The notes under the pieces are model-generated. The model saw only the letters and a program-made list of their open reading frames with translations, did no database searches and was not told where the DNA came from. The position numbers and the translations under genes were made by a program. DNA of 64,000 bases from a virus. The stretch spans positions 1 to 64,000 of the IMG/VR virus record IMGVR_UViG_3300042296_000700. The stretch is one strand, 5' to 3'. Positions 19,622-37,110 of this stretch are shown one piece after another. The first letter of the stretch is position 1; each line of letters begins with the position of its first letter.

Positions 19622-20401
19622 TTAATTCTTAGTTTTATTGTATGCTTCAAGCAGCGAACGCCCTTTAGCAGCAAGTTTCGCTGCGTCTTCCATCGTTTCT
19701 GGCACTGGCTCACCCCACGCAGCAGCAGATAACGCTAATCGTGTTGGTTTTCCATTAGGTAATTTCATCGGACCGCTCGGGTTAGTGAAAAAACGAGTTA
19801 GAAATGAACCTTTGCGACGCATTTTCATGGGCGTATCGGCAGGTCCAGTAACACCTGGTCTTAGATTTGAGCCCTGTGTTCTGTTGTAGAACGCTCGCCC
19901 CCTAGCGGTTAACCCGCCTTTCGGGTCTTTAAGAGGTTGCGTTAGTTCTTTTTTTTTTGCTTCGCCATCAGTAATCGTTGGACCGCCAACAACCCATGCA
20001 TCGCAGGTTCGTTCGGCATGGCATTTGAAGTCAAATGCTTCACAGTAGCCAATCTTGCCAGCATCAATAATGTCCATTGCGGTATTGCCTGCTTCGTTAC
20101 CGAGAGCACCTTCAATACACTTAAGAATCCGAGGCGAACGCACAAACATAATACAATTACCGCATAGTTGTTTCTTTGATGATTCAATGGAAACGTCCCA
20201 GCGGTCAGCCTTTTTCTTCCAGAAATCAACATTGGGCTCTTTTGGATTTAGAGGACCATAACCAGCGGTATCAATTGCTTTTTGACGATTCTTAATATTG
20301 ACAGCAATATCTTGTGTCGCTAGAGGGCAAACATCACCTTCAGCCTTAATTTGGATTCCAGTGATTTTGCTAATGTCCATTATTTTTTGAACTCTTCCCA
20401 A
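19622..20401 (-). CDS. two-domain conserved phage protein (Cys-rich domain + DUF6321-like KDPKGGLT domain)
   Basis: CP.ATQD...YGP.NP...CGNC...C..FDFKC...RTCDAW and KDPKGGLTARGR...RRKGSF..RF. Confidence 0.65.
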   Translation of the reverse strand: MGRVQKIMDISKITGIQIKAEGDVCPLATQDIAVNIKNRQKAIDTAGYGPLNPKEPNVDFWKKKADRWDVSIESSKKQLCGNCIMFVRSPRILKCIEGALGNEAGNTAMDIIDAGKIGYCEAFDFKCHAERTCDAWVVGGPTITDGEAKKKELTQPLKDPKGGLTARGRAFYNRTQGSNLRPGVTGPADTPMKMRRKGSFLTRFFTNPSGPMKLPNGKPTRLALSAAAWGEPVPETMEDAAKLAAKGRSLLEAYNKTKN

Positions 20402-20781
20402 GTTTTGTCTCCAACACCAAAGTACTCTCTGGCGTGACCTGACTGAATAATATCAGTGTTTAGACATGCGGTCGTCGGGTCATCAATTTTGTCTGAAGAA
20501 AAGATGCGGGCTAAGACTCGCCCGTATTTATCATTTTTGTCTGGGATGGTATTCACAAAAACCCATTTATGGCTAGTGAGCCAGTCCTGAGTAAAACTTT
20601 TGGCTTTCAGACCCAACTCTTTTTCTTTGAGGTCTTTAGTGCGTGATTCAGGAGTATTGACACCGTATAGGCGGACACGAATCTTGTGGTGCACATCAAA
20701 CCCAAGGTCAACCATCAGTTCAATAGTGTCCCCATCAATCACCTTGAGAAGGGTTGCTCCATACCAAAATCGTTCAGCCAT
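20380..20781 (-). CDS. thermonuclease (SNase-like)
   Basis: VIDGDT, RVRLYGVNTPE, DKYGRVLA. Confidence 0.92.
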   Translation of the reverse strand: MAERFWYGATLLKVIDGDTIELMVDLGFDVHHKIRVRLYGVNTPESRTKDLKEKELGLKAKSFTQDWLTSHKWVFVNTIPDKNDKYGRVLARIFSSDKIDDPTTACLNTDIIQSGHAREYFGVGDKTWEEFKK

Positions 20782-20879: not shown

Positions 20880-22181
20880 TCAGGCAGGAGCGCTGTTGAA
20901 GGTGACTTCAACGAATGCTTCAGGGCGCTTGACTGCGAGAGCCAGACGCTGTTCTGCGAGCACAACGATTGCGTTGCGGACGAAGAAGTCTGCGTGCTGT
21001 TCGCTGATGCGGATGCTTGCCTGCTCACGGTCGTACAACTGTGCTCCCGTACCGAATGCGCCGATGAGACCCTTGCCTTCGGTCATTGCTGGGGTGTCCA
21101 CGACTGGGATGCGCCACAAGCGTGGCTCTCCGCCGAGGGCAACCGAAACGGCTACGAGGTACTGACCATTGTCGTCCTTTGACAATTCAATGTCTTCCCA
21201 ATCATTCGGGTGAAGAACAACGCCAGTTGGCTCGTAGTAAGCGAGGAACGACAAGGTTGCGGCACGACGAATCGCGTCAGCCTTGGTGTCACCTGCTGCT
21301 CCAGACGACCAAGAGTAATCCTGAACGCCAGTGGTGTTGAGGATTCCGAGGAGGTTTTCGCCAACTCCGTCACCGTTAAGGATTTGGGCATCTTCCTGAA
21401 GGCGCAAGCCGTAAAGAAGTTCGTTGTCAATGATGCTGCGCAATTGCGGCTCATCGGCGAGAACGTTACGGTGTGCTGCTTCCCAGTGAGCCAAAGTGCG
21501 AACAGGAGCCTGCTCACCAACGAATTGGAAAGACGACTGCGGCTTGGCAGCAAAGGCGTTACCACTACGCTCGGCAACTGCGCCTGCGTTGTTGGTGAAA
21601 CCAGTCATACGGAAGTATTCAATGACCGAAGCAGTCGTGGTACGGCTTGGGAACAAGTCGCGAACACGCTTGGTACGCATTGGAGGAATGACGATGGCAT
21701 CGCGCTGGATTGAACCAAACGAACCAGGGGTTCCCGTTGGCAATGCGCTGTACATGTCCTTGGTGCTCCAGAGACCCGTGACATCTGCACGGTTAACTTG
21801 GAAAGGAGCAGGCATGTTTGCGCCATTCTTGCCGCCGCCAAGAGCCTTGAATTCTGTTGAATCCAAGAACGCCTGTCCGAGGCTCTTTGCCGAAGCAGGT
21901 GCTTGACTCCACTGACCTTGAGCGGCAGCAGCCTCTGCTACTGAACCACCCTGTGGCTGTGAGCCCCATGCTTCAACATCGCGCATACTTTCAAGACCCT
22001 CAATGAGGCTCTTGATTTCGCGGATATCTCGCATATTGCTGTCAAATGCTGACTTCTGCTCGGATGAAACGATTACGGTGCCTTCTTCAATTTTGAATGA
22101 GTCGGCGATTTCTTTGTTGTTTGCCATCTTGGTGCGAAGCGCACCTTGAAGTTCAGACAATCGGTTTGCGTCAAAAGACAT
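20880..22181 (-). CDS. major capsid protein (HK97 fold, N-terminal delta domain)
   Basis: KSLG.AF, VRTLAHW, LADEPQL.S.ID.EL..GL...ED.QILNGDG, VLHPNDW..IEL.KD..G.Y, AE.RLALAV.RPEAF. Confidence 0.96.
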   Translation of the reverse strand: MSFDANRLSELQGALRTKMANNKEIADSFKIEEGTVIVSSEQKSAFDSNMRDIREIKSLIEGLESMRDVEAWGSQPQGGSVAEAAAAQGQWSQAPASAKSLGQAFLDSTEFKALGGGKNGANMPAPFQVNRADVTGLWSTKDMYSALPTGTPGSFGSIQRDAIVIPPMRTKRVRDLFPSRTTTASVIEYFRMTGFTNNAGAVAERSGNAFAAKPQSSFQFVGEQAPVRTLAHWEAAHRNVLADEPQLRSIIDNELLYGLRLQEDAQILNGDGVGENLLGILNTTGVQDYSWSSGAAGDTKADAIRRAATLSFLAYYEPTGVVLHPNDWEDIELSKDDNGQYLVAVSVALGGEPRLWRIPVVDTPAMTEGKGLIGAFGTGAQLYDREQASIRISEQHADFFVRNAIVVLAEQRLALAVKRPEAFVEVTFNSAPA

Positions 22182-22327: not shown

Positions 22328-23557
22328 TTAAATCTCTTGAGCATCTTCTAAGACATAATGTCGGGTGACATTTCTTGGTACCCCACGCCGCTCTGATGAG
22401 CCACGCAAAGAAACCTCTAGTTCCTTATAGTTTACACCATTCATTGTAAACGACTTTAATTTCTTGCCTTTGTCCTTCCAAGGATGTCCTTCTGGGAGTA
22501 GGTCATTATCTGTTGTATATGACGCTTTTGCGCTACCAGTCATCAACAATTTAAGGAAAGCATTGACACGACCCATTGCCCATTGGTTTCTATTCATGCC
22601 GGGTCGGTGGCTGACACTAAAAGCACCAGCACCGCGACGGTAAACAGATTTAAGCGCACGAAGATTAGTTTTTGACCAATCGTCTTTTTTCTTGTCTTTT
22701 ACAGCAGAGTTATGTTCGCGAACTTTGGTCACTAAAGAGTTCTCAACGCCAATAGTTAGCGAGATTTCACTCCCTGAACTTACAGAACTTGCCGAACCGA
22801 CACTATTCCGACTTGAGCCGATAATCTTGTCCTTCTTAGGCGCAGGAGTTTTTGCCCCAGATTTATCGTCAGTGATGACTTCTTCAACCTCGTCCTTTTT
22901 CTTGGGACGTCCATCGTTTCTGAGTCCACGTACTTTGTTGTAATCAGGGGATGTGGTGCACGGTAAGTAAACGATTTTGCCGTCACTTGCACGGTAACTA
23001 CGGATACCAATACAACCTAACTGACGTGCGCGTACACGGGCTGAATCTGGGTTCGTATAAACGTCAGGGTCTGTTGAACGAGAAACATAATTAACGAAAC
23101 CCTTAGCGTCCATCTGTTCCACTTCAAGCGTCTTGCCTGAAACGAGACCGCCACCAGAAAGAGTGTCTATAGAGAGCACCCCACGCTCACCCAGTTTTTC
23201 AAAATCATTCTTTTTCGGGATAGGTTGCCCATTATTGCAAATGCTGTAAACGGCAACACCGTTGCGCATTATCGTCCGTACCCCACCACACCTACGCTTT
23301 TTAGCCTCAAGCAATGCTTCAGCACGAGAACTAAATGTTTCTGTGCTTTTAGAGTCAGTAATAGCAATCTTGGCTTGAAAAGATGGAGTCAAAGTCTTTT
23401 CGTTACGCACTTTTTGTTGACCACGAATAGCGTCAGTCATCACCTCATGGCTGACACAGGGCATCCAGCGACCTTCGGCATCCTGATGAGCGCCGTAGCA
23501 CCCAAGCATTCTTGCCACGCGCATTGCCTGCTTGCGTGTTGCCGACTCCATTATCAA
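22328..23557 (-). CDS. head-associated protein with three xGC.G...PC repeats and a C-terminal conserved domain
   Basis: ARMLGCYGAH..MPC, AKKRRCGGVR..IC, ARQLGCIGIR..LPC; VYRRGAGAF..SHRP...QWAMGRVNAF...DNDLLP.GHP. Confidence 0.65.
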   Translation of the reverse strand: MIMESATRKQAMRVARMLGCYGAHQDAEGRWMPCVSHEVMTDAIRGQQKVRNEKTLTPSFQAKIAITDSKSTETFSSRAEALLEAKKRRCGGVRTIMRNGVAVYSICNNGQPIPKKNDFEKLGERGVLSIDTLSGGGLVSGKTLEVEQMDAKGFVNYVSRSTDPDVYTNPDSARVRARQLGCIGIRSYRASDGKIVYLPCTTSPDYNKVRGLRNDGRPKKKDEVEEVITDDKSGAKTPAPKKDKIIGSSRNSVGSASSVSSGSEISLTIGVENSLVTKVREHNSAVKDKKKDDWSKTNLRALKSVYRRGAGAFSVSHRPGMNRNQWAMGRVNAFLKLLMTGSAKASYTTDNDLLPEGHPWKDKGKKLKSFTMNGVNYKELEVSLRGSSERRGVPRNVTRHYVLEDAQEI

Positions 23558-23871
23558 ACCTCAGGGTAGAGGATTTTGACTTTACGTGGAATTGAACTCT
23601 TGCCGTCTTTTTCTGTCAAATCGCCCATATAGAAACCGTTATTGGAGAACTTGACAAAAACCTTCTCTAGTTCTTTTTGGTTTTTCTTTTGGCTGAAATA
23701 CCAGACAGTTGAGTGAATTAGTTCGTCATCATCTGTTTCCTCATCAAGCGCATTCGCTATGAGAAGGACTTTACGACGCACCTCTTCAGGGAGTTTCATA
23801 AACTCCTCTTTGATGTGGGCAATGTTTTGAGGTGTTAAACCAATTTTTTTAGAAATTTTATTCTTCGTCAC
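23554..23871 (-). CDS. small protein downstream of the GNAT effector (candidate immunity protein)
   Basis: Overlaps the stop of the 1213-aa gene. Confidence 0.55.
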   Translation of the reverse strand: MTKNKISKKIGLTPQNIAHIKEEFMKLPEEVRRKVLLIANALDEETDDDELIHSTVWYFSQKKNQKELEKVFVKFSNNGFYMGDLTEKDGKSSIPRKVKILYPEV

Positions 23872-26800
23872 GTGGGTCCGCCTTAATCAAGTTCTTGTCA
23901 AGATAGAAAGTTCCGCTTGCTAGTCCCATGTTGGTTGCGAACCAGTTGCGCAGTTCTGTATCGCGGGCTCGCTTTGCTTCGCGTTCGTCGTTGCCGTAGG
24001 GGTTTGTTAGTGCATAAATAAAATCCATATGCCTGACGGAGTTTGGATTGTCTTTGTGTTTATCTATCAAATATTCAATGATATTAGCATCTTCTTCGTT
24101 TTTGATGATTGAAGTGTCGCCACGCCGAAAAGCGTTGAGTTGTGTATTCAAATTACTGACATGCGTGTTTGGGATAGGGGCTTCAAATCCAATGCGACCC
24201 CAAACATAAGGTCCATCGTCAGCAGTGCCTACAGTAATTTTTTCAAATCCAGCAGCCTTAGCATACATGAAAGCGTGCTGGTTGTAAACAGTTTGAATTC
24301 CATTGTTCTTGTGGTCGTTGCCACGAATAAACATTGTGCCGTTTCTAACCACACCTGCGTTGAGGTCTAAGTATCTACTACTGTCTCCCATGTTTGTCCA
24401 AGTGCCATTTGCGTTTTTTACCTCAAAATTAACGCTCACAGTGATTTGATTACCACTCAGACTGGCAGTTGCAACAGACCTGTATGTTTTACCGTTTGAG
24501 CCTTGAATTTCAGGGTGGGAGTACATTGCCTTAGCCCACGCTTCTAGTTGATTTCTTGCCGCTGATGCTTCTGGTCCACGTCCTTGTGCGTCGCGTAAAA
24601 GTTCTTGGCGTTTTTGAAGTGTCATTTCTTTCCATGGTGCGTTGCCTGCGCCGTATTGCCTATCTAGATGAAGAGCAAGTGTTCTTTGTCGTCCTTCAAT
24701 TGCGTCCTTCACACGCTGTTCTGCTTGACGTGCCAATTCAGGGTTTAGTGGTTCTGGTGCTGGCGCCGCAAGTGCTGCATCAATTTCCGCTTTCCGTTCT
24801 TTATATCTGTCGCGATGTGCAATTGCCACAATGAGGTCACGTTGCGCTACAAGGAAATTATCGTTTACTCCTTGTCCTTCGCGAGCGTCATAATTACGCT
24901 TTTTGGAAGCAACAACCTCATCTAGTTCGGCAAGACGCCGCTCATATGCTGGCAATATGCCGTCCCTATCGCGCATCCGCATGAGGGCGTCTCCGCCACC
25001 ATTGAAAGCACCGTTGAAGTCGGCATCAGCCCTGCCAACGCCGTCGTTCACAGCATTGTTTGCGCGAGATACGCGCTCGTTGACATTAGGCGCACCCTGT
25101 GCTTCAAAGAAAGCGCGCCATTGTGCAGGGGTGCGCCCTCTGACGTCATCGTCTCCACCAATACGGGTTGCTTGTTGTGCTGCCGCAGAAGGTTCTCTTG
25201 GAGCAGATGGCGTCCGACTTGGTTCTGGAGCATTTGGTGCGTCGTTGCCTTCAAGTTCTGCAGCACGACGCTTGAAAGCATTTCGTGTATCCATAACACG
25301 TTGAACTTGACCATTTTTGTCAATTACGTTTCTTGCTGCGTCTTCTTTGTCTTCATCTCCAGCATTACCAAAGGCGTCTGCCGCTTCACGAAGTTCTCTC
25401 CGTGCATCATCAAGCGCATTCTCCTGAACTTGGACGTTCGCACGAAGTTCAACAAGGTCACCACGCCTCCACGCAGCCATATTCTGAGGAAGTTGAACAT
25501 CGCGGTTTTGGATGATTCCTTCTTGAACTCGCCTTGCATAATCATCATCCATATTGTTGCCAAGCATGCGACGAAGTTGGGCTTTATCAAGACCGTCATC
25601 TGGAATATCAAATCCCATACGAAGGTCGGCTGGCACGCTACGAGGGTTACGCGCTGCTTCAACCTGACGCCTAGCCTGCTCTACAGTATTTTCAGCACGA
25701 GCAGGCTGTCCGTTGTTACGGTCATAAACCTCTTGCCATGCGTCCCTATAATCCTTGAGACCCCTTCTGACTTGACCAATACTAATTCTTTCACCGTCGT
25801 CGCGCTCAAAGAAATCCCTGTCAGCAATTTGTCCACGATTAATCGCATCCTCTAGACGGTCCCACCTCGCTTTAGAAATCGTAACTTTCTGGCGCGCTTC
25901 GTCTGCCTTGCTTCTTTTTCTAGCAGCACTGTCAGGGAAGTTGCGGTCGTCATTCAAAATCATTATTGGGTCATTGGGCAAAATGTCACGAAGTACGTAT
26001 TCCTTAAAATTGTCGTCATTTAAGACTTGGTTTAAATCACCTGCTCGTACACCACCCCCTGACGTGAATAGGCGTCCCCTGTTAGTTGCGTTATCGCTTT
26101 GACCAGCACGAGCAGGCTTGCGTGGGTCAGGAAGTGACCTCAACTGACGTTCTCTGCGAACGTCCGCAAGTATCATTCCAACTCTTGTTCTGTCTAAATC
26201 TTCACGCTGTATGTTGTCACGCTGGTTTTGAACTAGTTTTTCAAGTTCCAACAGGTCAGCGTCTTGAACTTGGTCAAGATTATTAAAGACATTCCTTTGT
26301 TCTTCATTAAACTCCCCAGCAAAGAAGTTGTCTTCAGGATTTTCTTGCATTTGGCGATTTATGCGCTTTGCGTCGCGTTCAACTCCGCCTAAACGACCAG
26401 CATTGTCGTCTCTTGTAATCGTGCGAGCAGGTGTTGTTTCGCGAGCGGCAGGTGCTGCGGATGGTTTGCGAGCCGCCGCACCTTCATTTTGACGAGAAGC
26501 AGTATCCCTATTATTGGCTGGTCGGCGACGACCCGCATTAGCAGGACGACGTGGAGCAGCAGGGCGAGGTCTTGCTGCAGGAGCAGGTGCAGCATCAACA
26601 TCAGTTCGTGCAGCACCAGGATTGTCAATTTCTCGTTGCATGCGACGTTCTTCAGATGCGCGCAGGTTTCGGCGTGGGCGTTTGGCGGCTGCAGGACGAG
26701 GGCGTGGGTTAGCATTATTTTGGCGACGACCGCGAGTTGCTTTACGTCGTTTCAACTCTGCCATTACTCGTTTGTAGTCGTCGCTATCCCTGCCATCGGT

Positions 26801-27499
26801 AGCGTTTTCTAACTCTTCACGCATTTCCTCTAAAACTTCAGTCGGTTCGGCTGCGAGAAGGTTGACGTCTTCACGTTCTTCACGAGCAGGACGAGCAGGG
26901 GTATCTGCGGCGTTGTCGGGAGTCAAGTCTCGTCCTCTGTCACGACCGCGAGGTGCTTGGGGAGCATCAGCGCGGCGAGCACGCCCTTCACGATTTGGCT
27001 TATCTGGGTCAACTACTTCGGCAAGACGACCCGCTGCTCGCTCAAGACGACCAGTAGGACGAGGCACTTCTGCGCCAACACGATTACGTTGTCCGCCTTG
27101 GCGACCTGTTAGGTCAAGAGCATCACCAACACGACCTGCGGCACGCTCAATTGCGCCTGGTGCTCCAGCCAAACGACCAGCCATACGGTCGTTACGTTTG
27201 CGTAGTTTTCGTTCGCGTCGGCGGTCACCAACATTTTCAAGACGTTCACCTAAATCAGAGATTTCATTAGCGAGACGGCGGGCTACACCCCAACCGCAGT
27301 TCCTGCCGAAACGGTCAGTAATTTGACCACCATAACGAGTTCCTACTGGACAACGAAAACCACCGCGGCGACTAGTCCCTGGTACTGCAAGGGATGGGTC
27401 AAATATTGCTCGTGCACGCTTAACTTCGTACAGCATGGAAGAGCGATTGCTTTCCGTTGTAAAGCGAAGAGCCTTATATGAAACTAGGTTTTTGTCCAT
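23858..27499 (-). CDS. large RCPxG-module protein with Arg/Pro/Ala linker and C-terminal GNAT-like domain
   Basis: GGFRCPVGTRYGGQITDRFGRNCG; C-terminal HKNNGIQT...GFEKITV...DDGPYVWGRIGF, similar to 12526-13641; likely start MDKNL at 27499. Confidence 0.75.
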   Translation of the reverse strand: MDKNLVSYKALRFTTESNRSSMLYEVKRARAIFDPSLAVPGTSRRGGFRCPVGTRYGGQITDRFGRNCGWGVARRLANEISDLGERLENVGDRRRERKLRKRNDRMAGRLAGAPGAIERAAGRVGDALDLTGRQGGQRNRVGAEVPRPTGRLERAAGRLAEVVDPDKPNREGRARRADAPQAPRGRDRGRDLTPDNAADTPARPAREEREDVNLLAAEPTEVLEEMREELENATDGRDSDDYKRVMAELKRRKATRGRRQNNANPRPRPAAAKRPRRNLRASEERRMQREIDNPGAARTDVDAAPAPAARPRPAAPRRPANAGRRRPANNRDTASRQNEGAAARKPSAAPAARETTPARTITRDDNAGRLGGVERDAKRINRQMQENPEDNFFAGEFNEEQRNVFNNLDQVQDADLLELEKLVQNQRDNIQREDLDRTRVGMILADVRRERQLRSLPDPRKPARAGQSDNATNRGRLFTSGGGVRAGDLNQVLNDDNFKEYVLRDILPNDPIMILNDDRNFPDSAARKRSKADEARQKVTISKARWDRLEDAINRGQIADRDFFERDDGERISIGQVRRGLKDYRDAWQEVYDRNNGQPARAENTVEQARRQVEAARNPRSVPADLRMGFDIPDDGLDKAQLRRMLGNNMDDDYARRVQEGIIQNRDVQLPQNMAAWRRGDLVELRANVQVQENALDDARRELREAADAFGNAGDEDKEDAARNVIDKNGQVQRVMDTRNAFKRRAAELEGNDAPNAPEPSRTPSAPREPSAAAQQATRIGGDDDVRGRTPAQWRAFFEAQGAPNVNERVSRANNAVNDGVGRADADFNGAFNGGGDALMRMRDRDGILPAYERRLAELDEVVASKKRNYDAREGQGVNDNFLVAQRDLIVAIAHRDRYKERKAEIDAALAAPAPEPLNPELARQAEQRVKDAIEGRQRTLALHLDRQYGAGNAPWKEMTLQKRQELLRDAQGRGPEASAARNQLEAWAKAMYSHPEIQGSNGKTYRSVATASLSGNQITVSVNFEVKNANGTWTNMGDSSRYLDLNAGVVRNGTMFIRGNDHKNNGIQTVYNQHAFMYAKAAGFEKITVGTADDGPYVWGRIGFEAPIPNTHVSNLNTQLNAFRRGDTSIIKNEEDANIIEYLIDKHKDNPNSVRHMDFIYALTNPYGNDEREAKRARDTELRNWFATNMGLASGTFYLDKNLIKADPRDEE

Positions 27500-27506
27500 T
27501 AGATGT

Positions 27507-27755
27507 TCACTTCCCAAACAATTCGCGTACTTTTGCCTCATAATCGCCCGAATAGTCACCCTCGGTGATTTCGCTATAAGTGCTGCTGGTAATAATTTCA
27601 CCGATTTTAGGTTTCTTATCACCTAAAGAATACCATTCGTCAAACGATTCATCTTGCTTGCCGTCGCTATCAAACAGTTTTATGCCGTTGTCTGTCTCAA
27701 TGTAAACATTCTTATATGTTTTGTCTTCAGTTGAAGTTACTACTACGTATTTCAT
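27507..27755 (-). CDS. small acidic protein downstream of the kinase effector (candidate immunity protein)
   Basis: 82 aa, GGAAAAG RBS, fills the gap between two paralogues. Confidence 0.6.
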   Translation of the reverse strand: MKYVVVTSTEDKTYKNVYIETDNGIKLFDSDGKQDESFDEWYSLGDKKPKIGEIITSSTYSEITEGDYSGDYEAKVRELFGK

Positions 27756-27767
27756 TTACTTTTCCAA

Positions 27768-30473
27768 TCAACGGGCTGTTATGAGGTTGTATATTTGTTC
27801 TGGTGTCAAGTTTAAGAGGTATTCCTGCCGAGCGGCAAGCCCATCAACATGGTCATTATGCCCTGGTGAAACGGATAACCCACTAGGGTCGCGCCTTGCT
27901 TCAACTGCATCTCTACCAAAGTCTGCGATATCTCGCTCGCGTTGCGCAGCACGAAGGGCATCTTGTGCTAATCCAATTTCTCGGATTACTTCGGAACGTT
28001 GGTCGTTGCGAAGTTCGGCACGCATCGGGTTGCGATTACCGCCTTGTCCATCCGCGAGCCATGTCCTGAATCCTGATTCGTTGGCATAATCACCTGATTG
28101 AAAATACCCTTGTCGCCCTCTGAACCCAAGTCCGTTATCAATTGGGACGAGATGCTTTTTGCCATTTTGCGTAACAAGAAAGTAGTTTTCGTTATGCCTG
28201 TCTGTGTTCATTATTAGGTAGTCAAGAAATGTTGCGCGAACCTTGTCCTTTACCACATTAGGGACGTCGTTACGACCACGTGGTTTGATAGGACTAGCAA
28301 CGTAGTTGCCGACATGTTCAAACATAATAGGACGAGCCTTTGCTGGAGGTTGACCGTTGAAAGGAGGCCCTGCAAATCTAAACTCACCGACAGGAAAGCC
28401 TAACCGAGCAGCAACATTATTGCCCACAATTTCGTTGAGGTCTTCATTTTTGCCAAACATAAGTTTCCCTGTCCTGCCCCTATGGTCGCCAGAGAATTTG
28501 ACAAAGAATTTTTTACCCGTTGCAGTATCTGTGAACAAATCTGCTGACCCGTTGATTCCGCCTCCTAGTGTGGATTTGGTGAAACGCTTTCCTTGACCCG
28601 AGTTGGCTTTCATTGCATTAAACAGGAAATCATCAGGTACGTCTCTAATGTCTCCGCCGTTGGCGAGGTGTAGGTCTGCGTCCGCTTGTACGTTGATATT
28701 TTTGTTGCCTTTAGGGATATGGCGAATGTCTGGGACACCGTTTGCAATATCACCTATTTTGTTGTCGTTTTGCTTTACCCTAATGTTTGGGGCTTTGCGA
28801 ACTCTGGAACCAGTGCCAGCATTACGTGGTGCTCGTGGTGCTCGCGGAGGACGAGCGGGAGCAGGAGCGGGTGCGGCTTGTTCTCCTAAAATTCTTTCTA
28901 GTTGAGCGATTCTCGCATCGCGATTAGCACCAGGAACATTCTGGTCACGGTCTTCTCGTAGTTGATTCAGTTCCTCACGAAGTCCTGCCTCTTCGGACGG
29001 GGTGAACTGTCGTGCTGCAGGTCTACGTGGACGAGGGGCTGCTGGTTGAACAGCATCTGGCTGGTCATTAGGGCGGGGACGACGATTCGCAGGACGGCGA
29101 CCATTTTGTGCGGCTGCCCCAGTACGACGTCCACGTCCTCCATTCGGGCGAGGACGGGCTGGTGCATTGCCAGCGTCAGGATTGCGGTCACGCCATGCTT
29201 GTTCTACGGCAGGACCGTGGAAACGTTCCCATTCTGAGCGACGCAAGAATCCAGCATTTCCACCTCCGTCACGAATACGACGAACCTCTGCTTGATGCTC
29301 ATTGTATTTACGTGTCTTGTATGTGTCTAGTGATTCCCGTGCACTTGGTGCTCCTGCAGGTACGGGAACTCCGCTCGTATTGTCTACGGGAACATTTCGC
29401 GGTCTTGCAGGGCGAGGATTTGCAGGACGACGCGGTGCAGCAGGACGAGGACGGTTGGCTGGCGCTACTGGGGCGTCGCCTGTTCGTGGAGCGCCAGGAT
29501 TGTCAATTTCGCGTTCCATGCGTCGTTCTTCTGAATCGCGAAGGTTGGGGCGACGACGAGGATTTCGTTGCGGAGCAGCAGGACGAGGATTGCGGGCTGG
29601 TGCTCTCCTGTTGCGGGTGGGCTTGTCGGGGTCAACAACGTCAGCAATTCGCCCTGCGGCACGCTCAAGACGACCAGGTTTCACGGTGTCTACCTGACCT
29701 GTGCGGTTGCGCTGTCCTCCTTGACGACCTCCCATACCAGTGAGGTCAAGCGCATCGCCAACTGCGCGTGCGCCTCGTTCAATTGCTCCGCCTCCAGCAA
29801 GGCGACGAGCCATTCTTTCGTTTCGTCGTGTTACGCGTCGTTCGCGTCGGCGGTCACCAACATTTTCAAGGCGTTCACCGAGGTCAGAGATTTCGTTAGC
29901 CAAACGGCGGGCAACTCCCCAACCGCAGTTCCTACCGAAACGGTCAGTGATTTGTCCGCCATAACGTGTCCCTACTGGACAACGAAATCCGCCACGGCGT
30001 TCTGTGCCTGGTACTGCTAGAGACGCGTCCCAAACTGAACGAGTGCGCTTAACTTCGTATGTGAAAGATGATTTGTTTTGGTCTGCAATAAAAGCGACAG
30101 CCTTGTACTGCACAGCATTTTTCCACGCTTCAACAGGAAATTCGGAGAGTTGAATATCCATAAGGGAGATAACTGGCAGAAGTTCTGCTGAAGCATCTTT
30201 CTTTTCAATTTCTTTAGACGGTTTTGTGAGTGAACGGTTCTTTAATTCTTCTACTACAGAGTCACTAACAGTTGTTTCAAGCGACATTGAATTATCAAGA
30301 GTTACGGTTAGTTCCTCTTTGCTAATCTTTTTCCCAGCGTATTCATCAGCCATCCACTTTGACCACGATTTTGCGGCTGCTACAACAGGATGAAACTGTG
30401 CACCGTCGGGAAGAATTTCAACGAGCGCGTACGGCTTGTTCTCTCTGTCTTTAATGAGAAATCGTGCAGCCAT
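27768..30473 (-). CDS. RCPxG-module protein with C-terminal HipA/PI3K-PI4K-like kinase
   Basis: Gly loop GGGING, FFVK, NEIVG (alphaC Glu), DYLIMNTDRHNENY catalytic loop, PIDNG. Confidence 0.85.
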   Translation of the reverse strand: MAARFLIKDRENKPYALVEILPDGAQFHPVVAAAKSWSKWMADEYAGKKISKEELTVTLDNSMSLETTVSDSVVEELKNRSLTKPSKEIEKKDASAELLPVISLMDIQLSEFPVEAWKNAVQYKAVAFIADQNKSSFTYEVKRTRSVWDASLAVPGTERRGGFRCPVGTRYGGQITDRFGRNCGWGVARRLANEISDLGERLENVGDRRRERRVTRRNERMARRLAGGGAIERGARAVGDALDLTGMGGRQGGQRNRTGQVDTVKPGRLERAAGRIADVVDPDKPTRNRRAPARNPRPAAPQRNPRRRPNLRDSEERRMEREIDNPGAPRTGDAPVAPANRPRPAAPRRPANPRPARPRNVPVDNTSGVPVPAGAPSARESLDTYKTRKYNEHQAEVRRIRDGGGNAGFLRRSEWERFHGPAVEQAWRDRNPDAGNAPARPRPNGGRGRRTGAAAQNGRRPANRRPRPNDQPDAVQPAAPRPRRPAARQFTPSEEAGLREELNQLREDRDQNVPGANRDARIAQLERILGEQAAPAPAPARPPRAPRAPRNAGTGSRVRKAPNIRVKQNDNKIGDIANGVPDIRHIPKGNKNINVQADADLHLANGGDIRDVPDDFLFNAMKANSGQGKRFTKSTLGGGINGSADLFTDTATGKKFFVKFSGDHRGRTGKLMFGKNEDLNEIVGNNVAARLGFPVGEFRFAGPPFNGQPPAKARPIMFEHVGNYVASPIKPRGRNDVPNVVKDKVRATFLDYLIMNTDRHNENYFLVTQNGKKHLVPIDNGLGFRGRQGYFQSGDYANESGFRTWLADGQGGNRNPMRAELRNDQRSEVIREIGLAQDALRAAQRERDIADFGRDAVEARRDPSGLSVSPGHNDHVDGLAARQEYLLNLTPEQIYNLITAR

Positions 30474-30475
30474 AA

Positions 30476-32677
30476 CTAAATCCCTACTAGTTTGTTGAAT
30501 TGGGTGTTTTGTTTTTTCAACGTATCTCTACGTGTCGTGAATAGTCTCTTGACCATTTCAAGGTGACGCTTTTCTGCATCAGAAAGCATTCCATCGGCAG
30601 TAAGCCTGCTCACATATTCATCCCAGTTGAACGCATCAATCTTCTTAAATAAGTCATCAACAAGACTTGCAAGCATTTTACGCTCTGATTCACTTAAAGA
30701 ACCGAAACTATCTTTATAAACACGAGCACCACGCTCATCAAGATAATCAGGAATGTCAATTTTGAACCGTCGTGCAATTTCGGCAGCGGTCAATCCAGCC
30801 ATATTTGACAACTCGTTACTACTTGGAATAACGGTAATCCGAGAACCATCGCGGACTGCAGAAAGTGTTGCAGGAGAGCGGTCACGACGGTCGGTCAAAT
30901 AATCGGCGATGGCTAAGCGAAGAATGTCTGCTTTAGGAATCTTGTCAAACTCCAGTGAAGTATCAAACCGTGTTTCGCCTTGACTGATGTCATTCATGAT
31001 GAGGTCACGCTTTGAGGCACTGCCACCAATTTTGGTATTAGGCATTTTGAGACCTACATGTGAAGCAATATCTGCGTACACCTTTTCCGAGACACTGCCG
31101 TACGTGACGGTTTCTGGAACTTGGAGAACAGATTTTCCGCTCCCTGCTTGATGCTTAATAATGCCAGTACCAAGCGGAGTTGACTTATAAGATTTGCTGT
31201 TTTTTAATGCGTCAGAAATGAATTCAGAAGGAATGTCAAACGGGTCTCCACCATTATCAAGCATTTTGATTGATTCAGCGAGCGTTGTCGGTGAGTCGTT
31301 CTTTGGTGTTGTGTCTTCACGGATAGTTTCCGTAGGAGCAACTGGCTTAATCTTGCCTTTACCGTTGGACATGAAAGTTTCGTAGACCCAACGGCGTACT
31401 TCAACTTTGCCCCCACGACCATTATTAACTGATATGAGGTCGTTGGGCTTGTCAATATTTGGGAACTTCTCGGTGTATTTGAACGCTCCGCCAGATGAGT
31501 TAGCAAAATCACGGATGTTGTTACCAACATCAAATTGGTCACTTTCACCAGCAACTCTGTTTAGTTGGCGTCCAAATTTACGGCGTTCGCCAACAGTTAG
31601 GTCACGAGCACGCTCAATTGTGAGGGTTGAACCGTTTGGCAGAACATACGTTACTTGCCGTACTGCTGCACCAGATAGGAGGGCAAGGTCGTCGCCAACA
31701 ATGTCTTTCGGTACTTGGATGGGGCGCACCATGACGCTTCCGTCCATGTCGGAGTTTCCACTAAACTTACGCAGCACAGAAGATGGAACGATTGGTTTCA
31801 AGACTACGGCGTCGCGCCGAATGAGTCGTCCCTCTGTTGTTGGTGCGCCAGTAACCGTGCGGATTGCGGCTTGTACTGCTTTTAAGCGTTCTGCTGGCTT
31901 ATCTGCGCCAGTTCTAGGGATTTGTGCCATGCGAAGAATTGATGCAGTGTTGGAAGTTGCTCCACCACTAACTACTTCGGAAAGGCTGTCTGCCTCTGTT
32001 CGTGGAAGTTTGGGTTTGCTGTTTAACCGCCGTGCTGCGCCGAGCGCAACACCGAGGGCAGAAGGAATATCAAACAACTGTGCACCACATGTTGAATAGC
32101 GAGAATCAGTAAATCGTCCACCAAACTGAAATCCTGCAGGACAACGAAATCCTCGTGTCGGTTTTGGTACAACACGGCGAATCTTGCCTAATCCTGGCAC
32201 GTTTCCACCAGGAACTAGAGCGGAGTAAACGCGGGAGCGAATCGGGCTGCGAATTCCTGATAGGTCACCAGGTAGGGCGATTGTGCCCGCTGCCTGAATG
32301 TTTTGACCAAGAGCGCCACTGGAACCAATCACACCAACTTTGACGCTTACCGATGAACCCATGCGGTTGCGGGTTGGCGTGGAGAATGCTGCTGCCTTAA
32401 AGTTGACGACGTTGCGTTCAGTCCCACTTAAATGTTGGTGCATTGCGAGGGACATTGATTTGACGTACGGTTCAAGCGGGCGCTTCTGTGCTGTAAAGTA
32501 TTCGCCGTTTTCAATACGTGTACGTGTTACCTGAGACTTTGTACTACTTGGGTTAAATGGAATCTTGATATAACCATCGCCGTCAACAACCGTACGAACA
32601 AAAGAACTGTCTTTACGCAGCAAAGGGCGCTGATGTCGCAAAAAACTATTTATTGAACTTTTGCTATCAACGCTCAT
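30476..32677 (-). CDS. RCPxG-module protein with degenerate kinase-like C-terminus (pseudokinase)
   Basis: RGFRCPAGFQFGGRFTDSRYSTCG; SEKVY..IA..VGL..P, DYLTDRRDRSPATL, IPSSN (lost His/Asn and the D of the PIDxG motif). Confidence 0.7.
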   Translation of the reverse strand: MSVDSKSSINSFLRHQRPLLRKDSSFVRTVVDGDGYIKIPFNPSSTKSQVTRTRIENGEYFTAQKRPLEPYVKSMSLAMHQHLSGTERNVVNFKAAAFSTPTRNRMGSSVSVKVGVIGSSGALGQNIQAAGTIALPGDLSGIRSPIRSRVYSALVPGGNVPGLGKIRRVVPKPTRGFRCPAGFQFGGRFTDSRYSTCGAQLFDIPSALGVALGAARRLNSKPKLPRTEADSLSEVVSGGATSNTASILRMAQIPRTGADKPAERLKAVQAAIRTVTGAPTTEGRLIRRDAVVLKPIVPSSVLRKFSGNSDMDGSVMVRPIQVPKDIVGDDLALLSGAAVRQVTYVLPNGSTLTIERARDLTVGERRKFGRQLNRVAGESDQFDVGNNIRDFANSSGGAFKYTEKFPNIDKPNDLISVNNGRGGKVEVRRWVYETFMSNGKGKIKPVAPTETIREDTTPKNDSPTTLAESIKMLDNGGDPFDIPSEFISDALKNSKSYKSTPLGTGIIKHQAGSGKSVLQVPETVTYGSVSEKVYADIASHVGLKMPNTKIGGSASKRDLIMNDISQGETRFDTSLEFDKIPKADILRLAIADYLTDRRDRSPATLSAVRDGSRITVIPSSNELSNMAGLTAAEIARRFKIDIPDYLDERGARVYKDSFGSLSESERKMLASLVDDLFKKIDAFNWDEYVSRLTADGMLSDAEKRHLEMVKRLFTTRRDTLKKQNTQFNKLVGI

Positions 32678-33128
32678 ACAGTGCTGTCCTTAGTCGTTTC
32701 TGCTCATTTACTACCCGACTATTTGTCTCAGCATTCAAATCAGTCGCAGTTGGTGACATCTTTTGTTTATTGCCATATATGTCTTCTGGCTTTACCCCTA
32801 CACTTGTAAGGATATCAGGGCTTATGGGCTTGGAGCGGGTAGAAAACATGGCTATCCAAGTTTCTGTATCCATCTTTTCTGAGCGTGAAGACATTTCCCA
32901 AAACTGCTTGTGGAACTCGGTTGTTTCTATTAACCGCCATTCGTCAAGTTTTGTTTGAATTCCGCCATCGTTTAGGTGAAAGTATAAAGCGTAAACTTTA
33001 ATCGGTGTATCCACGCCGCCCTCAGAAAAATAGCCGTCGTAGTTTGATGACTTTGGCTTTAGGCACGTATAAATAATTGCTTTGTCTACTACTGCGACTG
33101 GTATGGGGAATTCTTTTTTGTCAATCAT
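32667..33128 (-). CDS. protein downstream of the DUF3626-like effector (candidate immunity protein)
   Basis: ATG at 33128, immediately after the stop at 33130. Confidence 0.55.
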   Translation of the reverse strand: MIDKKEFPIPVAVVDKAIIYTCLKPKSSNYDGYFSEGGVDTPIKVYALYFHLNDGGIQTKLDEWRLIETTEFHKQFWEMSSRSEKMDTETWIAMFSTRSKPISPDILTSVGVKPEDIYGNKQKMSPTATDLNAETNSRVVNEQKRLRTALYER

Positions 33129-33129
33129 C

Positions 33130-35511
33130 TTACGAAACACTTTCCTCGTCTGGCGTTGACGGAGCGGACGCCCATCGGATTTGTTGCTGAACGTCTTCAA
33201 GCAACTGTTTACGCACGCGTGCCCCCCAAATGTCGGTAATGCGGTCTCCAGCCTTGCCACCGTCATATTTTGTTGGGTCTCCTAAATCAAGACCATCATA
33301 AGAACCAAAAATGACTTTAGCATTCGGAGCCTTTTCGGCGACCAATGAAGTAATTCGCTCCATTTCCATGGCAGATATCAAACCATTGAGTTTTAACTCA
33401 TCTCTCATTGCAGAAGCCTGATTCTTGGTATTATCTGGTTGAGCGTTTGTTACCTTCCATCCAGAAATTTTTGCACGTGCAACTTCTATCTCGCCCATTG
33501 TGAAACCTGCGGCAAGCAACTGTTCAGTAGAAAGATGCTGGTCTTCAATTTTTTGAATCAATTCTGCGCCATCAACGCCGTTGGGGTTAAACTGGTTTTT
33601 GTAAGTTGGGAACAATTTCGTTGCATCAAGTTTGATTTCCTTAATGTCTTGAGCGGTGAATCCTCCAAGTATTTGTGATTCCGTAAATTGACCATTTTGT
33701 TCTAGTCCACTTTTATTCCAGTTAACAAAATCTTGCGTAACGTGGGTTCGTAATAGGCGATTGATGTTGTCGTTCATGTCGCTGCTGTCCAAGTGACCAG
33801 CGATTGATTCAATTAGTTCCTCGTCTGATGCGCCAACTGCCGCAGTGCCTCTTGCTTGATTAAGGATGCTGTCCTTATGGTGAATTGTTGTCCTATCGGC
33901 AACCTCTGGGTGAAGTACAAATTCCATGTCTCCATAGCCGATTCCATTTCCAGCAAATGCACCTACAAACTCGTCAGTAACCCCTGCTGCACCCCTACCA
34001 GGAATGGTCAAGTAGTGGTCTGTGGTGAATAGTTCCATTCCTTCTTTTGCGTTGTTCTCATCTGTGATTCGTTTTAACTCGTCGTCCCAGAAAGTAAAGC
34101 GACTAAAACCGTATACAGGGCGAACACCAGAACCGTGTACTGCTCCGACACTTGCTTCATATTGTCCACGGCTGCCAAGTAGTGATGACATAGCATCACC
34201 AACCTTGGCATCAGTTTTGACTTCCATCGGAAGGTAGCCATCTGTTAAATATGCTTCTAAATGTTGCCCTTTAGCCCACACTGAGGCTTCAGGTTTGCGG
34301 GCTTTTGCAATCGTTAATGCAGTCTGTTCTATCGCTGCAATTACTTCATCATCAGTGTGCGTGAGGATAAATTCATGCGTTTTGGGGTCTATAACTTTGT
34401 CAAATGGAAGTCCATTTATGTCGGTCTGGATGCCTGATTCAATCATGCTGCGAAGGTCGGAAACCTTTTCTGCCATCATTGTCCTGCGTTGCGTCTGTCG
34501 TTCTTTCAGAGTCAAAATGGCTTTACCTGCATAGAAGCCAGAATCATTTATTGCTTTAATGTCCTCATCCGTAGGCTTGCCCCACTTCGGAGCCTTGGCG
34601 AGAACCTCGGCATTGAAGTCTTTGATTTGTGCAGATGTTGCGTGCTCAGCACTTGGAAGTCCGAGTAAGTCTGAAGAATCGGTAAGTTTCCCAACAGCAC
34701 GGTCAACAGCAGTGGGCTCGTTAGCGTTAATGCCTCTAAAACGTTCTTTTGTTGACTTAATAACATCGTTGAATGAACCTTGCATCTTTTCTGAAAGTTC
34801 GCCACCCTTAATACGGAGACGTTTCATTCTTTCGGCAAATGCCTCCTGATATTCGTCAACCTGTTCTTTGGTTTTGTTCCACTTTTCTTTAGCGTTTGCT
34901 AACGCCACCTTGACAGGCACCATGCCACCAGTAACAAATATGCTCGTCAACATTTCAATACCTTCGTTGGTATCAGAGTCACCACTGGCACCAGTGAAGT
35001 CATTTATCATGCTGCCAATGTCGCCGAAATTGCCAAAAAAAGTGCCCCAGTAAGCCGTAGCCCAAGCAAGTTTTTTCACTATCGCTTTTTGTTCAGGAGT
35101 TAAGCGTCGCTTGTCTTTTTCAAGCGTGTCATCAATATCAATACCAAGCGCCCTGAACTCTGCAATAAGTTTAGGTGACGTCTTGCTAGGCACGAGACTT
35201 GATGCTGCTTGGGCGGCAGCATTCGCCACTGTTTCTGCACTTGGAACCATACAGTTAGACATCTGCATGTCGGTAAACTGGTTAGCATTCGGCGTTCCTG
35301 GCGGACACCGCATTTTGCCATTCTCGTCAATAATGATTCCAGCACGACGAGCAGCATGCTGTCCCACTGAAGGAAGTTTATCGTTGTCGCGAACGGTAGG
35401 TCCAAGGAAACCTTTCACCATTACACTTGTGCGGACAACAGAAACTGCTGACGTGAAACCGTCAATACGTTCGTTCGCTATGTCAGGGAGTGACCTCATA
35501 GTCACGGGCAC
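33130..35511 (-). CDS. RCPxG-module protein with C-terminal DUF3626-like domain
   Basis: GKMRCPPGTPNANQFTDMQMSNC; RPVYG...YGDMEFVL.PEV.DRTT...DS...ESQILGG...DI. Confidence 0.7.
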   Translation of the reverse strand: MPVTMRSLPDIANERIDGFTSAVSVVRTSVMVKGFLGPTVRDNDKLPSVGQHAARRAGIIIDENGKMRCPPGTPNANQFTDMQMSNCMVPSAETVANAAAQAASSLVPSKTSPKLIAEFRALGIDIDDTLEKDKRRLTPEQKAIVKKLAWATAYWGTFFGNFGDIGSMINDFTGASGDSDTNEGIEMLTSIFVTGGMVPVKVALANAKEKWNKTKEQVDEYQEAFAERMKRLRIKGGELSEKMQGSFNDVIKSTKERFRGINANEPTAVDRAVGKLTDSSDLLGLPSAEHATSAQIKDFNAEVLAKAPKWGKPTDEDIKAINDSGFYAGKAILTLKERQTQRRTMMAEKVSDLRSMIESGIQTDINGLPFDKVIDPKTHEFILTHTDDEVIAAIEQTALTIAKARKPEASVWAKGQHLEAYLTDGYLPMEVKTDAKVGDAMSSLLGSRGQYEASVGAVHGSGVRPVYGFSRFTFWDDELKRITDENNAKEGMELFTTDHYLTIPGRGAAGVTDEFVGAFAGNGIGYGDMEFVLHPEVADRTTIHHKDSILNQARGTAAVGASDEELIESIAGHLDSSDMNDNINRLLRTHVTQDFVNWNKSGLEQNGQFTESQILGGFTAQDIKEIKLDATKLFPTYKNQFNPNGVDGAELIQKIEDQHLSTEQLLAAGFTMGEIEVARAKISGWKVTNAQPDNTKNQASAMRDELKLNGLISAMEMERITSLVAEKAPNAKVIFGSYDGLDLGDPTKYDGGKAGDRITDIWGARVRKQLLEDVQQQIRWASAPSTPDEESVS

Positions 35512-35754: not shown

Positions 35755-37110
35755 TTAGATTCCTTCCTCAATTGTGAGCATTTCAAATTCAAGCAAGTCT
35801 GCAAGGAGTTTTGTTGCTTCTGCATCTTCTGCTGACTTTTCGCCTTCAGCCATCTCTTCTTTAGGCTTTTCGGCTTCTTCGTCCCAACTGTCAGGAATCA
35901 TGTCTTCCTTGCCAAGTTCCTTAGCGCGCTTCTGGCAGTGCATTTTCACTTCATCAGGGTTGGAAGCCCGACCGACAGCCATGATTGCATTCTTCAAGTC
36001 TTCTTCATCCTTGATTGGATAAGAGCCATCAGGCATAGCCATTCCGCCCTTAGCCATTTCCATGCGCTCTTCGTCGCCATACATTGCTTTCAATGCGAGG
36101 TCAGCGACTTCTGCGTCAATGTCTTCTGCTTCACTGGCGTCATATTCATCCCAACCAAGGACTTCACCGTCAAGGCTAACGAACACGTCGTATGACTTTC
36201 CGTCGTCTCCTTCAACTTCAACAGCGTAAGCGTCGTAGCCTTCAAACATGTCGGCATCAACACTGATGACTTCGCCTTCAATGCTCTTAACGGCGATGTC
36301 TGCTGCTTCGTTGAATGAAATAACTCTTTCTCCAGCAATTTCAGCGACTTCTCCAAGAACTTTTTCGTTGAGGAGATGCCAGCCCATTACTTCGCCAGAT
36401 GTTCCGTCAAAGAAAATTTCTACTGGCTTGCCATCTTTGCGTTGAACGTCAACGATGAAAATGTCTGTTTCGTCTGCGTATGCAGAGTCAAGAACTTTTC
36501 CTGAGAACATGTCTTCTGCGATGCCTTCAACTTCAAGTAGTGATGGCATGTCTGCTTCTGAGGCACATCCACCAGGGCATTGTGCACAAACTTGGGAATT
36601 TCCAGCAAGCATTTTGCGTTCAAATGCGCAAACAAATGCGTCGTCATCAAATTCGCCAGACTTTACGCCCATGGTTTCCATGCGCTTCTTGCGTGCCTTC
36701 TTGCGCTTTGCAATAGGGTCGGAATCCAGTTCGTCTTCAACGTCTGATGCCATGCTCTCCATTGGCGACATGCCACCTTTTACTTCAGGAGTTTCTGCTG
36801 TGACCCAGTCTTCTGACTTGGCAGCAATGGTTTCTGCGGCAGCACCACATTTCCCACACACCTTCTGACCAGGCTTGTAACCGCACTCAGAAATAGGTAG
36901 AGCCTTAGCGCACTTGATAGTACCGTCGGCGAGTAGTTGAACAATCGGCTTATCTGCCATTTCGTCTTTCTCCTTGTATTGCATGGTTGATGTTAGGCAG
37001 CCACTTGGTTTTGTGCATCCAGAACATGGTGCCATGCGTTTTTCGCCTGAGACCATGCAACTGTATTTTGTTGAAACTTTGGGTAATCCGTTTTGTGAAG
37101 TATAACTCAT
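35755..37110 (-). CDS. acidic Cys-rich protein with PepSY-like domains and a DUF6582-like domain
   Basis: Three Cys clusters; ISFNEAADIA....GEVISVD....YAVEV...DGKSYDVFV..DGEVL (PepSY); A.PDGSYPI....DL.NAI.A.GR. Confidence 0.7.
   Translation of the reverse strand: MSYTSQNGLPKVSTKYSCMVSGEKRMAPCSGCTKPSGCLTSTMQYKEKDEMADKPIVQLLADGTIKCAKALPISECGYKPGQKVCGKCGAAAETIAAKSEDWVTAETPEVKGGMSPMESMASDVEDELDSDPIAKRKKARKKRMETMGVKSGEFDDDAFVCAFERKMLAGNSQVCAQCPGGCASEADMPSLLEVEGIAEDMFSGKVLDSAYADETDIFIVDVQRKDGKPVEIFFDGTSGEVMGWHLLNEKVLGEVAEIAGERVISFNEAADIAVKSIEGEVISVDADMFEGYDAYAVEVEGDDGKSYDVFVSLDGEVLGWDEYDASEAEDIDAEVADLALKAMYGDEERMEMAKGGMAMPDGSYPIKDEEDLKNAIMAVGRASNPDEVKMHCQKRAKELGKEDMIPDSWDEEAEKPKEEMAEGEKSAEDAEATKLLADLLEFEMLTIEEGI

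Follow-up and report, generated by a model that had tools for sequence, protein, structure and literature searches.

Four head-operon proteins of a probable actinophage share an N-terminal two-cysteine module and carry different enzyme-like C-terminal domains

We have analyzed a window of 64,000 nt from IMG/VR virus record IMGVR_UViG_3300042296_000700 and describe four consecutive large genes of its head operon, P0001 to P0004, whose products share a previously undescribed N-terminal module built around the motif RCPxG. Coordinates throughout are positions in the window, and all features lie on the minus strand unless stated otherwise. The four genes sit between the gene for an S78 prohead protease (37126-39156), which has a long extension at its C-terminus, and that for an HK97-type major capsid protein (20880-22181), an interval that also holds a PepSY protein and a DUF3721/DUF5824 protein. 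P0004 (slot 1; 33130-35511; 793 aa) carries a type C module, a helical extension and a candidate DUF3626/SopF-like ADP-ribosyltransferase-fold C-terminal region. In P0003 (slot 2; 30476-32677; 733 aa), a conserved middle domain separates the type B module from a predicted C-terminal pseudokinase. In P0002 (27768-30473; 901 aa), an N-terminal extension precedes the type A module, which is followed by a basic Arg/Pro/Ala linker and a predicted PI3/4K/HipA-like kinase. P0001 (23858-27622; 1254 aa as an open reading frame, ORF) likewise has a type A module and a basic linker, then an acidic helical middle and a predicted GNAT-fold C-terminal domain. A likelier start of P0001 is M42 at 27499, where public records begin, which gives a protein of 1213 aa. 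The parent record is 107 kb in length, with an estimated completeness of 73%, and has two WhiB-family genes, one at 8514-8702 of the window and the other on the plus strand at 93524-93715 of the record; the host is therefore most likely an actinobacterium. The closest cultured capsid proteins, at ~50% identity, are those of Brevibacterium phage Cantare and Gordonia myophages, and a near-identity DNA search of a phage collection returned no match to the window.

Each of the four proteins contains the pattern RCPxG-x8/9-TD-x5-C. The cores of the module lie at 35251-35310 in P0004 (RCPPGTPNANQFTDMQMSNC, type C), at 32087-32146 in P0003 (RCPAGFQFGGRFTDSRYSTC, type B), and at 29925-29984 in P0002 and 27296-27355 in P0001 (RCPVGTRYGGQITDRFGRNC in both, type A). 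P0001 and P0002 are 73% identical over 186 aa, and the window therefore holds three independent module types, not four. In an alignment of 42 diverged modules of the three subtypes, taken both from the window and from loci related to it, no columns other than R, C, P, G, T, D and C are invariant. Each subtype is strongly conserved in its own right, with the consensus ..YK-A..F....YEVKR.RA.WDPSLSIPGT.RRGG[WF]RCPxGTRYGGQITDRFGRNCGWG for type A (P0001 and P0002), ..EK[VA]GL.GS....IRSPIRS..Y.ALTPGG...RCPxGF.xGGRFTD..FSTCGAQLF for type B (P0003) and ..FKGFLGP......SVG.RAARAAGVIVD..GK[LM]RCPPGTPNANQFTD.QMSNC for type C (P0004). In six-frame translation RCPxG was observed four times in the window, where shuffling gives an expectation of about one, and the extended pattern C[PA]xG..[TS]D..C occurred only in P0001 to P0004; the whole 107-kb record holds these four copies only. 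It is hardly credible that the motif is shared through chance or composition and has no common function. The match to P0004 taken alone is weak (E ~0.01, with E 2e-5 for the motif match between P0002 and P0003), but seven residues are invariant across 42 sequences of three subtypes, each subtype is independently conserved across hundreds of proteins, and within the window the extended pattern is exclusive to these genes, by which this explanation is effectively refuted.

Pfam and PHROG scans of the 42 module sequences gave no match, and neither the four full-length proteins nor their modules matched MuF (PF04233). P0001 and P0002 have linkers rich in Arg, Pro and Ala, with isoelectric points (pI) of 11.4 and 11.8 and net charges of +23 and +40, respectively. 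Basic linkers of this kind would be well suited to contacting the packaged DNA and to being passed on in extended form. An earlier note on this DNA, made from the sequence alone, had described a non-MuF RCPxG two-Cys module on four genes between protease and capsid, with an Arg/Pro/Ala-rich linker in two of them, and our analysis bears out this description.

The module is widespread in metagenomes. A word-indexed search with the P0002 module recovered 420 proteins of 495-1577 aa, every one of them metagenomic. A module-profile search of metagenomes, which the earlier note had proposed, was run against 1.84 billion cluster representatives and returned 522 clusters (50% identity) at a cut-off of E<=1e-3; the proteins in them range from 87 to 4528 aa. 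No match at E<=1 was obtained when the type A and type C modules were compared by tblastn with 50,697 cultured phage records, and the module profile was not found in Gordonia phage ChisanaKitsune or Brevibacterium phage Cantare, the nearest cultured phages by capsid; a 13.7-bit match in these nearest cultured relatives contains an internal stop and was rejected as noise. Pattern scans for types A and C in 185,579 prokaryote species genomes revealed no relative. Given its absence from cultured phage records and prokaryote species genomes, the module seems to mark a phage clade that is large, uncultured and apparently not lysogenic. Of the 49 related viral loci that we retrieved, all that span the region had the same gene order: portal, protease, PepSY protein, slot 1 (type C), slot 2 (type B), two to three type A genes, DUF3721-type basic protein and capsid. 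The linkage to head genes seen in the window is thus kept in the relatives.

The four proteins differ in their C-terminal domains. That of P0002 (27771-28703), with the motifs NTDRHNEN and PIDNG, matches the Pfam family PI3_PI4_kinase (PF00454) at E 9e-7 to 2.4e-7 and 29.5-31.4 bits, above the cut-off of 27.1, in a match that spans profile positions 138-172 only, which is the catalytic loop. Weaker matches were found to HipA_2 (E 1.4e-3, under the cut-off) and to Fam20C. In the alignment, the equivalents of the beta3 Lys, DRHxxN and DxG are retained in all kinase-type orthologues. A PDB sequence search with the kinase domain gave nothing meaningful. Assignment of this domain as a PI3/4K/HipA-like kinase is supported by these motifs and by the Pfam match. 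The C-terminal domain of P0003 (30479-31300) is homologous to the P0002 kinase (E 7e-4, at the start of the N-lobe). In all orthologues, however, replacements are found at the beta3 Lys, at both His and Asn of DRHxxN and at the metal-binding Asp of DxG (DRSPAT, PSSNE), and the alignment supports the prediction that this is a conserved pseudokinase. In many relatives a DUF5872 insertion precedes the type B module of the slot-2 gene (e.g. L018:8279-9991), so that the motif lies at aa ~303, and the pseudokinase is missing; the architecture of slot 2 therefore varies too.

The last 294 residues of P0001 (23861-24742) form a well-conserved domain with 23 invariant columns, named P1C here, for which a GNAT or p300-like acetyltransferase fold is predicted. 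Its AlphaFold2 model has a mean predicted local distance difference test score (pLDDT) of 90 and a predicted template modelling (TM) score of 0.85. In a Foldseek search of the PDB all of the top 50 matches were acetyltransferases, with p300/CBP the best (E 6e-4) and GNATs at a probability of ~1.0. VIA-align gave Z 7.5-8.7 to Elp3, GCN5, NatD, p300 and the AtaT/KacT toxins, with root-mean-square deviations (rmsd) of 2.6-4.3 over 100-146 aligned residues; the guide supplied with the tool would rate such Z values as middling, but the match list is homogeneous. In BFVD, the fold was found in a 960-aa uncultured-phage protein (TM 0.81), in several actinophage acetyltransferases and in polyvalent-type giants; another uncultured phage has a MuF ('phage head morphogenesis') domain joined to a P1C-like fold. 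The model-based evidence supports a GNAT fold for P1C.

The C-terminal part of P0004 was harder to assign. The region in question covers aa ~400-740 (approximately 33292-34314) and contains the blocks RPVYG, YGD..R-TT..DS and YTESQILGG. A direct comparison of P0004 with Pfam gave no match, DUF3626 (PF12294) included. The slot-1 paralogue L026 of the related loci does match DUF3626 (E 6e-10), and hhalign aligned the P0004 class with this DUF3626 class at P 2.3e-4 over 151 columns, with three collinear blocks, RPxYG, YG..R[ST]T..DS and Y.E.Q..GG. When the AlphaFold2 model (pLDDT 64) was compared with known structures by VIA, Tpt1 (Z 6.6), SopF with nicotinamide adenine dinucleotide (NAD; Z 6.4) and DarT (Z 4.5-5.3) stood at or near the top, and the superposition on SopF comprised 243 aligned residues at an rmsd of 6.2. 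Neighbors of P0004 in a protein language model included DarT/PARP, OspC and Arr clusters, with scores of 0.81-0.83. Foldseek found nothing significant with the same model, a PDB sequence search with the P0004 alignment gave nothing meaningful, and the DUF3626 paralogue was likewise without a SopF match in that search. SopF carries DUF3626 (PMC6682159), and its PDB entry, 7dn9, contains NAD. P0004 is like the SopF/DUF3626 ADP-ribosyltransferases (PMC6682159; PDB 7dn9) in that it shares three motif blocks with DUF3626 paralogues of the same slot and has SopF, Tpt1 and DarT as its best structural matches; it is unlike them in its large insertions, low model confidence and a third block of the form E-x-Q. 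The individually weak lines from hhalign, VIA and the language model converge, and an ADP-ribosyltransferase-like C-terminus is moderately supported. Of the domain calls in the earlier note, those of a GNAT-like domain, a kinase and a pseudokinase agree with our results, whereas the DUF3626-like call gains from the profile alignment and the SopF, Tpt1 and DarT matches and is held back by the missing direct Pfam match.

Exchange of C-terminal domains was evident at slot 1. Type C N-termini that are 56-78% identical over ~200 residues are joined to five unrelated C-terminal classes: kinase (17), X (16), P4C, the class of P0004 (7), Y (6) and DUF3626 (3). The classes tend to bring their own small downstream ORF. 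P4C is followed by a 153-aa ORF in 4/4 loci, and this ORF is confined to P4C-bearing loci; in the window, an ORF of ~153 aa (32667-33128) starts 1 nt past the P0004 stop. A 74-97 aa ORF follows class X in six of seven loci, a 66-aa ORF follows the DUF3626 class in both of its loci (2/2), and a subset of the slot-1 kinase class is followed by an ORF of ~124 aa. The 153-aa ORF matched nothing in Pfam or PHROG, and classes X and Y gave no named family in these databases, only phrog_2859 (of unknown function) and a weak ParB-like match. Slot 1 thus has the layout of a polymorphic toxin locus with putative cognate small ORFs. Type A proteins behave otherwise: the 120 best relatives have two C-terminal types only, kinase and P1C, and both are present in almost every locus as conserved core genes. 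A model in which all four slots are hypervariable was rejected on these grounds. True polymorphism is confined to slot 1, and slots 3 and 4 (kinase and P1C) are conserved. The polymorphic-toxin architecture that the earlier note had ascribed to the whole array, with its variable C-termini, accordingly holds for slot 1 and fails for the kinase and GNAT cassettes.

The window proteins have one recognizable enzyme domain each. In relatives, these units are also found joined: P1C and kinase form single-chain fusions in P0142, P0149, P0182 and P0194, and P0171, a metagenomic relative of 4528 aa, consists of one module, five P1C copies and a terminal kinase. A Cys/His-rich segment of the protease extension (aa 340-428) recurs at 60-80% identity at the N-terminus of giant tagged proteins of relatives (1700-2870 aa). 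A DUF6321-like identity of this segment was considered and rejected (BLAST against the DUF6321 protein encoded at 19622-20401, E>1; nothing in Pfam).

The enzyme-like domains could be secondary or vestigial, the four products being structural inner-body, scaffold or DNA-condensing head proteins that mainly organize or neutralize the packaged genome and in which the module serves as an oligomerization, metal or disulfide knuckle. In favor of this, the linkers combine low complexity with an extremely basic composition, one relative matches a histone-H1-like Pfam family, one of the four proteins is a conserved pseudokinase, and the head operon has a thioredoxin gene beside those of the Cys-bearing proteins; the capsid protein has its own delta domain, so that extra core proteins are plausible. 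Against this stand the strict retention of the kinase catalytic motifs in kinase-type orthologues and the 23 invariant columns of the GNAT-fold domain. Slot-1 cassettes are moreover swapped together with cognate small ORFs among close relatives, which would be unusual for a core, and P0004 is acidic (pI 5.2). On balance we regard a mainly structural role as unlikely.

Candidate cleavage sites lie upstream of the module. HK97 gp5 matures by a cut at K103/S104. The capsid proteins of all relatives have K/S[LI]G at residue 99/100 (K99-S100-L-G in the window, with a delta domain of ~99 aa), which matches the HK97 gp5 site in position and chemistry. Similar Lys-small sites occur at fixed distances from RCP in the tagged proteins: hydrophobic-[KR]-[AST] at -41 in 244/249 type A sequences, K-[VA]-G at -60 to -64 in 30/30 type B sequences and K-G-[FY]-L-G at -35 in 56/56 type C sequences. 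P0004 has the conserved site K33/G34 (KGFLG) 35 residues upstream of the core, and the type A module of P0002 has conserved YK/A and YEVK/R upstream of the core. The sequence N-terminal to the site Lys is variable, with 8 to ~125 residues, and the sites are kept in the internal modules of fused giants. Such sites would be compatible with removal of a leader, or separation of polyprotein units, by the prohead protease, but do not by themselves show cleavage.

The enzymes might also act without being packaged, as late cytoplasmic enzymes or toxins for takeover, superinfection exclusion or inter-phage competition, with the head-operon site providing timing and the module a regulatory or partner-binding function. 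A cassette with a small downstream ORF resembles a toxin-immunity pair, the module is absent from the virion-protein families of Pfam and PHROG, and packaging is supported by context and analogy, not directly. Yet the position between protease and capsid is strictly kept in 49 loci, relatives fuse tagged proteins to a segment shared with the protease protein, a length of 700-4500 aa combined with disordered basic linkers is characteristic of ejection proteins, and the Lys-small sites are conserved like the capsid maturation site. We give this explanation slightly less weight than the structural one and consider it improbable.

The explanation that we favor, with modest confidence, is that the products of the four genes are ejection proteins, internal to the head, in an uncultured clade of WhiB-encoding actinophages with genomes of ~110-160 kb, and that together they represent a split polyvalent protein. 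Gene context and analogy suggest that these proteins are loaded into the capsid and injected. Each would consist of a variable or absent leader, a module of ~60-100 aa that begins at the hydrophobic-Lys-small site and contains the R-C-P-x-G...T-D...C loop, a long linker (very basic and disordered in two of the four) and an enzyme cassette. The module would recruit the proteins into the prohead, where the HK97-type protease could cut off the leader after the Lys, and the basic linkers would extend along the packaged DNA. The cargo domains would then enter the cell with the DNA, where their modification of host proteins or nucleic acids would serve takeover or anti-defence. The predicted cargo would comprise an active kinase of PI3/4K/HipA-like type with its pseudokinase partner, an acyltransferase of GNAT fold and an ADP-ribosyltransferase resembling DUF3626/SopF. 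Slot 1 would behave as a polymorphic-toxin locus in which the C-termini can be swapped and have cognate small ORFs.

Several observations weigh against the packaged-effector explanation. The module was never found fused to a portal, a MuF domain or a protease catalytic domain, and the proteins that bear it are known from metagenomic sequence alone, with no cultured relative. Position in a late-expressed operon is by itself no proof of packaging, the Lys-small sites are short motifs, and an immunity-like partner for an injected effector lacks a settled rationale. At the level of the cargo, the AlphaFold2 model of P0004 is poor, and its structural matches all fall under the noise guide of Z 8. 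P1C yielded no GNAT match by sequence (no Pfam match at E<=5 and no PDB profile match), and its acetyl-CoA loop is atypical, with K-N-N-G-I-Q-T in the window and D-R-G-A-D-I-Q-T in relatives where the canonical GNAT loop is Q/R-x-x-G-x-G/A. In view of the homogeneous list of acetyltransferase matches, the missing sequence-profile match and the atypical loop, we therefore accept the fold of P1C and leave its chemistry aside.

The proposed arrangement has parallels in known systems. The T4 proteins IPI-III and Alt and the P1 Dar proteins are head-internal, have an N-terminal signal, are processed by the prohead protease and are ejected with the DNA, and Alt is an ADP-ribosyltransferase. The T4 capsid-targeting sequence is ~10 residues long and is removed after LxE. 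The window proteins would resemble these in being head-internal cargo that includes a putative ADP-ribosyltransferase and bears an N-terminal signal. Unlike the T4 signal, to which it has no sequence similarity, the Cys-containing module of 60-100 aa would remain on the mature protein, and cleavage would occur after Lys as in HK97. Jamet and colleagues reportedly described, in 2017, MuF-anchored polymorphic toxins of temperate phages. The window proteins are like these toxins in that a head-associated N-terminal module is conserved while the enzymatic or toxic domains at the C-terminus vary, and in that a small gene follows downstream; elsewhere, a P1C-like fold is itself fused to MuF, and MuF-effector fusions are known to exist (PMC5512222). 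In contrast to such toxins, the module of the window proteins is not MuF, which in this phage is fused to the portal, and several tagged paralogues stand in tandem between protease and capsid with only slot 1 being polymorphic.

The closest comparison in terms of cargo is with polyvalent proteins, which are large, lie among virion genes and carry domains of ADP-ribosyltransferase, kinase, GNAT and ParB type; packaging into the virion and injection are predicted for them (PMC5512222; Iyer, Burroughs, Anand, de Souza, Aravind 2017). Their kinases belong to a truncated Ser/Thr/Tyr-type clade (PMC5512222), whereas the window kinase is predicted to be PI3/4K/HipA-like. The cargo repertoire is otherwise the same (kinase, GNAT, ADP-ribosyltransferase-like and weakly ParB-like), the neighborhood is likewise one of virion genes, and relatives of the locus fuse several cassettes in proteins of up to 4528 aa. 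The window cargo differs in being split over four genes, with one enzyme domain each and its own copy of a module that is outside Pfam.

The principle is known from the T4 capsid-targeting sequence with Alt, P1 Dar, MuF toxins and polyvalent proteins. What is new is the module itself, its tandem use on separately encoded and re-fusable units, and the combination, in a large uncultured actinophage clade, of a kinase-rich cargo with a conserved pseudokinase and a polymorphic first slot with cognate partners. In a more specific form, which we put forward tentatively and hold to be plausible but somewhat short of probable, the module would be a new portable head-incorporation tag, equivalent in function to the T4 capsid-targeting sequence or MuF but unrelated to either. 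With it, a freshwater-type actinophage clade would load exchangeable cassettes (kinases, a GNAT-fold acyltransferase, SopF-like ADP-ribosyltransferases and ParB-like domains), the protease would trim after a fixed Lys, and the small proteins would silence the cargo until packaging.

If the tag directs capsid entry, it offers a sequence handle for virion-delivered effectors in uncultured actinophages, and it could serve as a loading tool for actinobacterial phage capsids. The locus would also show how a polyvalent protein is split into tagged units and re-fused, both forms being present in the clade. The first slot would be a natural catalogue of cargo domains and their putative neutralizing partners, and thereby of candidates for anti-defence or host takeover. 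Packaged protein kinases, and a kinase-pseudokinase pair in particular, would be an unusual cargo for a phage head.

The remaining genes of the region are as follows. The portal protein (39574-41775; Phage_portal at aa 55-378) has a C-terminal MuF domain (Phage_Mu_F at aa 644-730), and MuF is thus present in the window phage on the portal and is without a toxin domain. A thioredoxin gene (39257-39595; Pfam E 4e-25) lies between the portal-MuF gene and that of the prohead protease; it adjoins the Cys-bearing head proteins and may have a bearing on the redox state of the invariant pair of cysteines in the module. Directly after the protease, the PepSY-containing protein (35755-37110; 451 aa) is very acidic (pI 4.3); its position is kept in all related loci, and it could be a protease regulator or a scaffold. 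The basic DUF3721/DUF5824 protein (22328-23557; 409 aa) is encoded immediately upstream of the capsid gene and keeps this position among relatives, with its length varying from 188 to 735 aa. Two further small ORFs flank P0001. The gap between P0001 and the kinase gene holds an acidic ORF of 82 aa (27507-27755), to which weak matches (E ~1e-3) occur in the corresponding place in five distant loci but not in the closest relative. After P0001, a 105-aa ORF (23554-23871) has a weak HTH_19 match; its counterpart after P1C genes is kept in some relatives only. Downstream of the capsid gene lie a staphylococcal-nuclease-like gene (20380-20781), which directly follows it, and the gene for the DUF6321 protein (19622-20401), a segment resembling which is present in the larger protease proteins of relatives.

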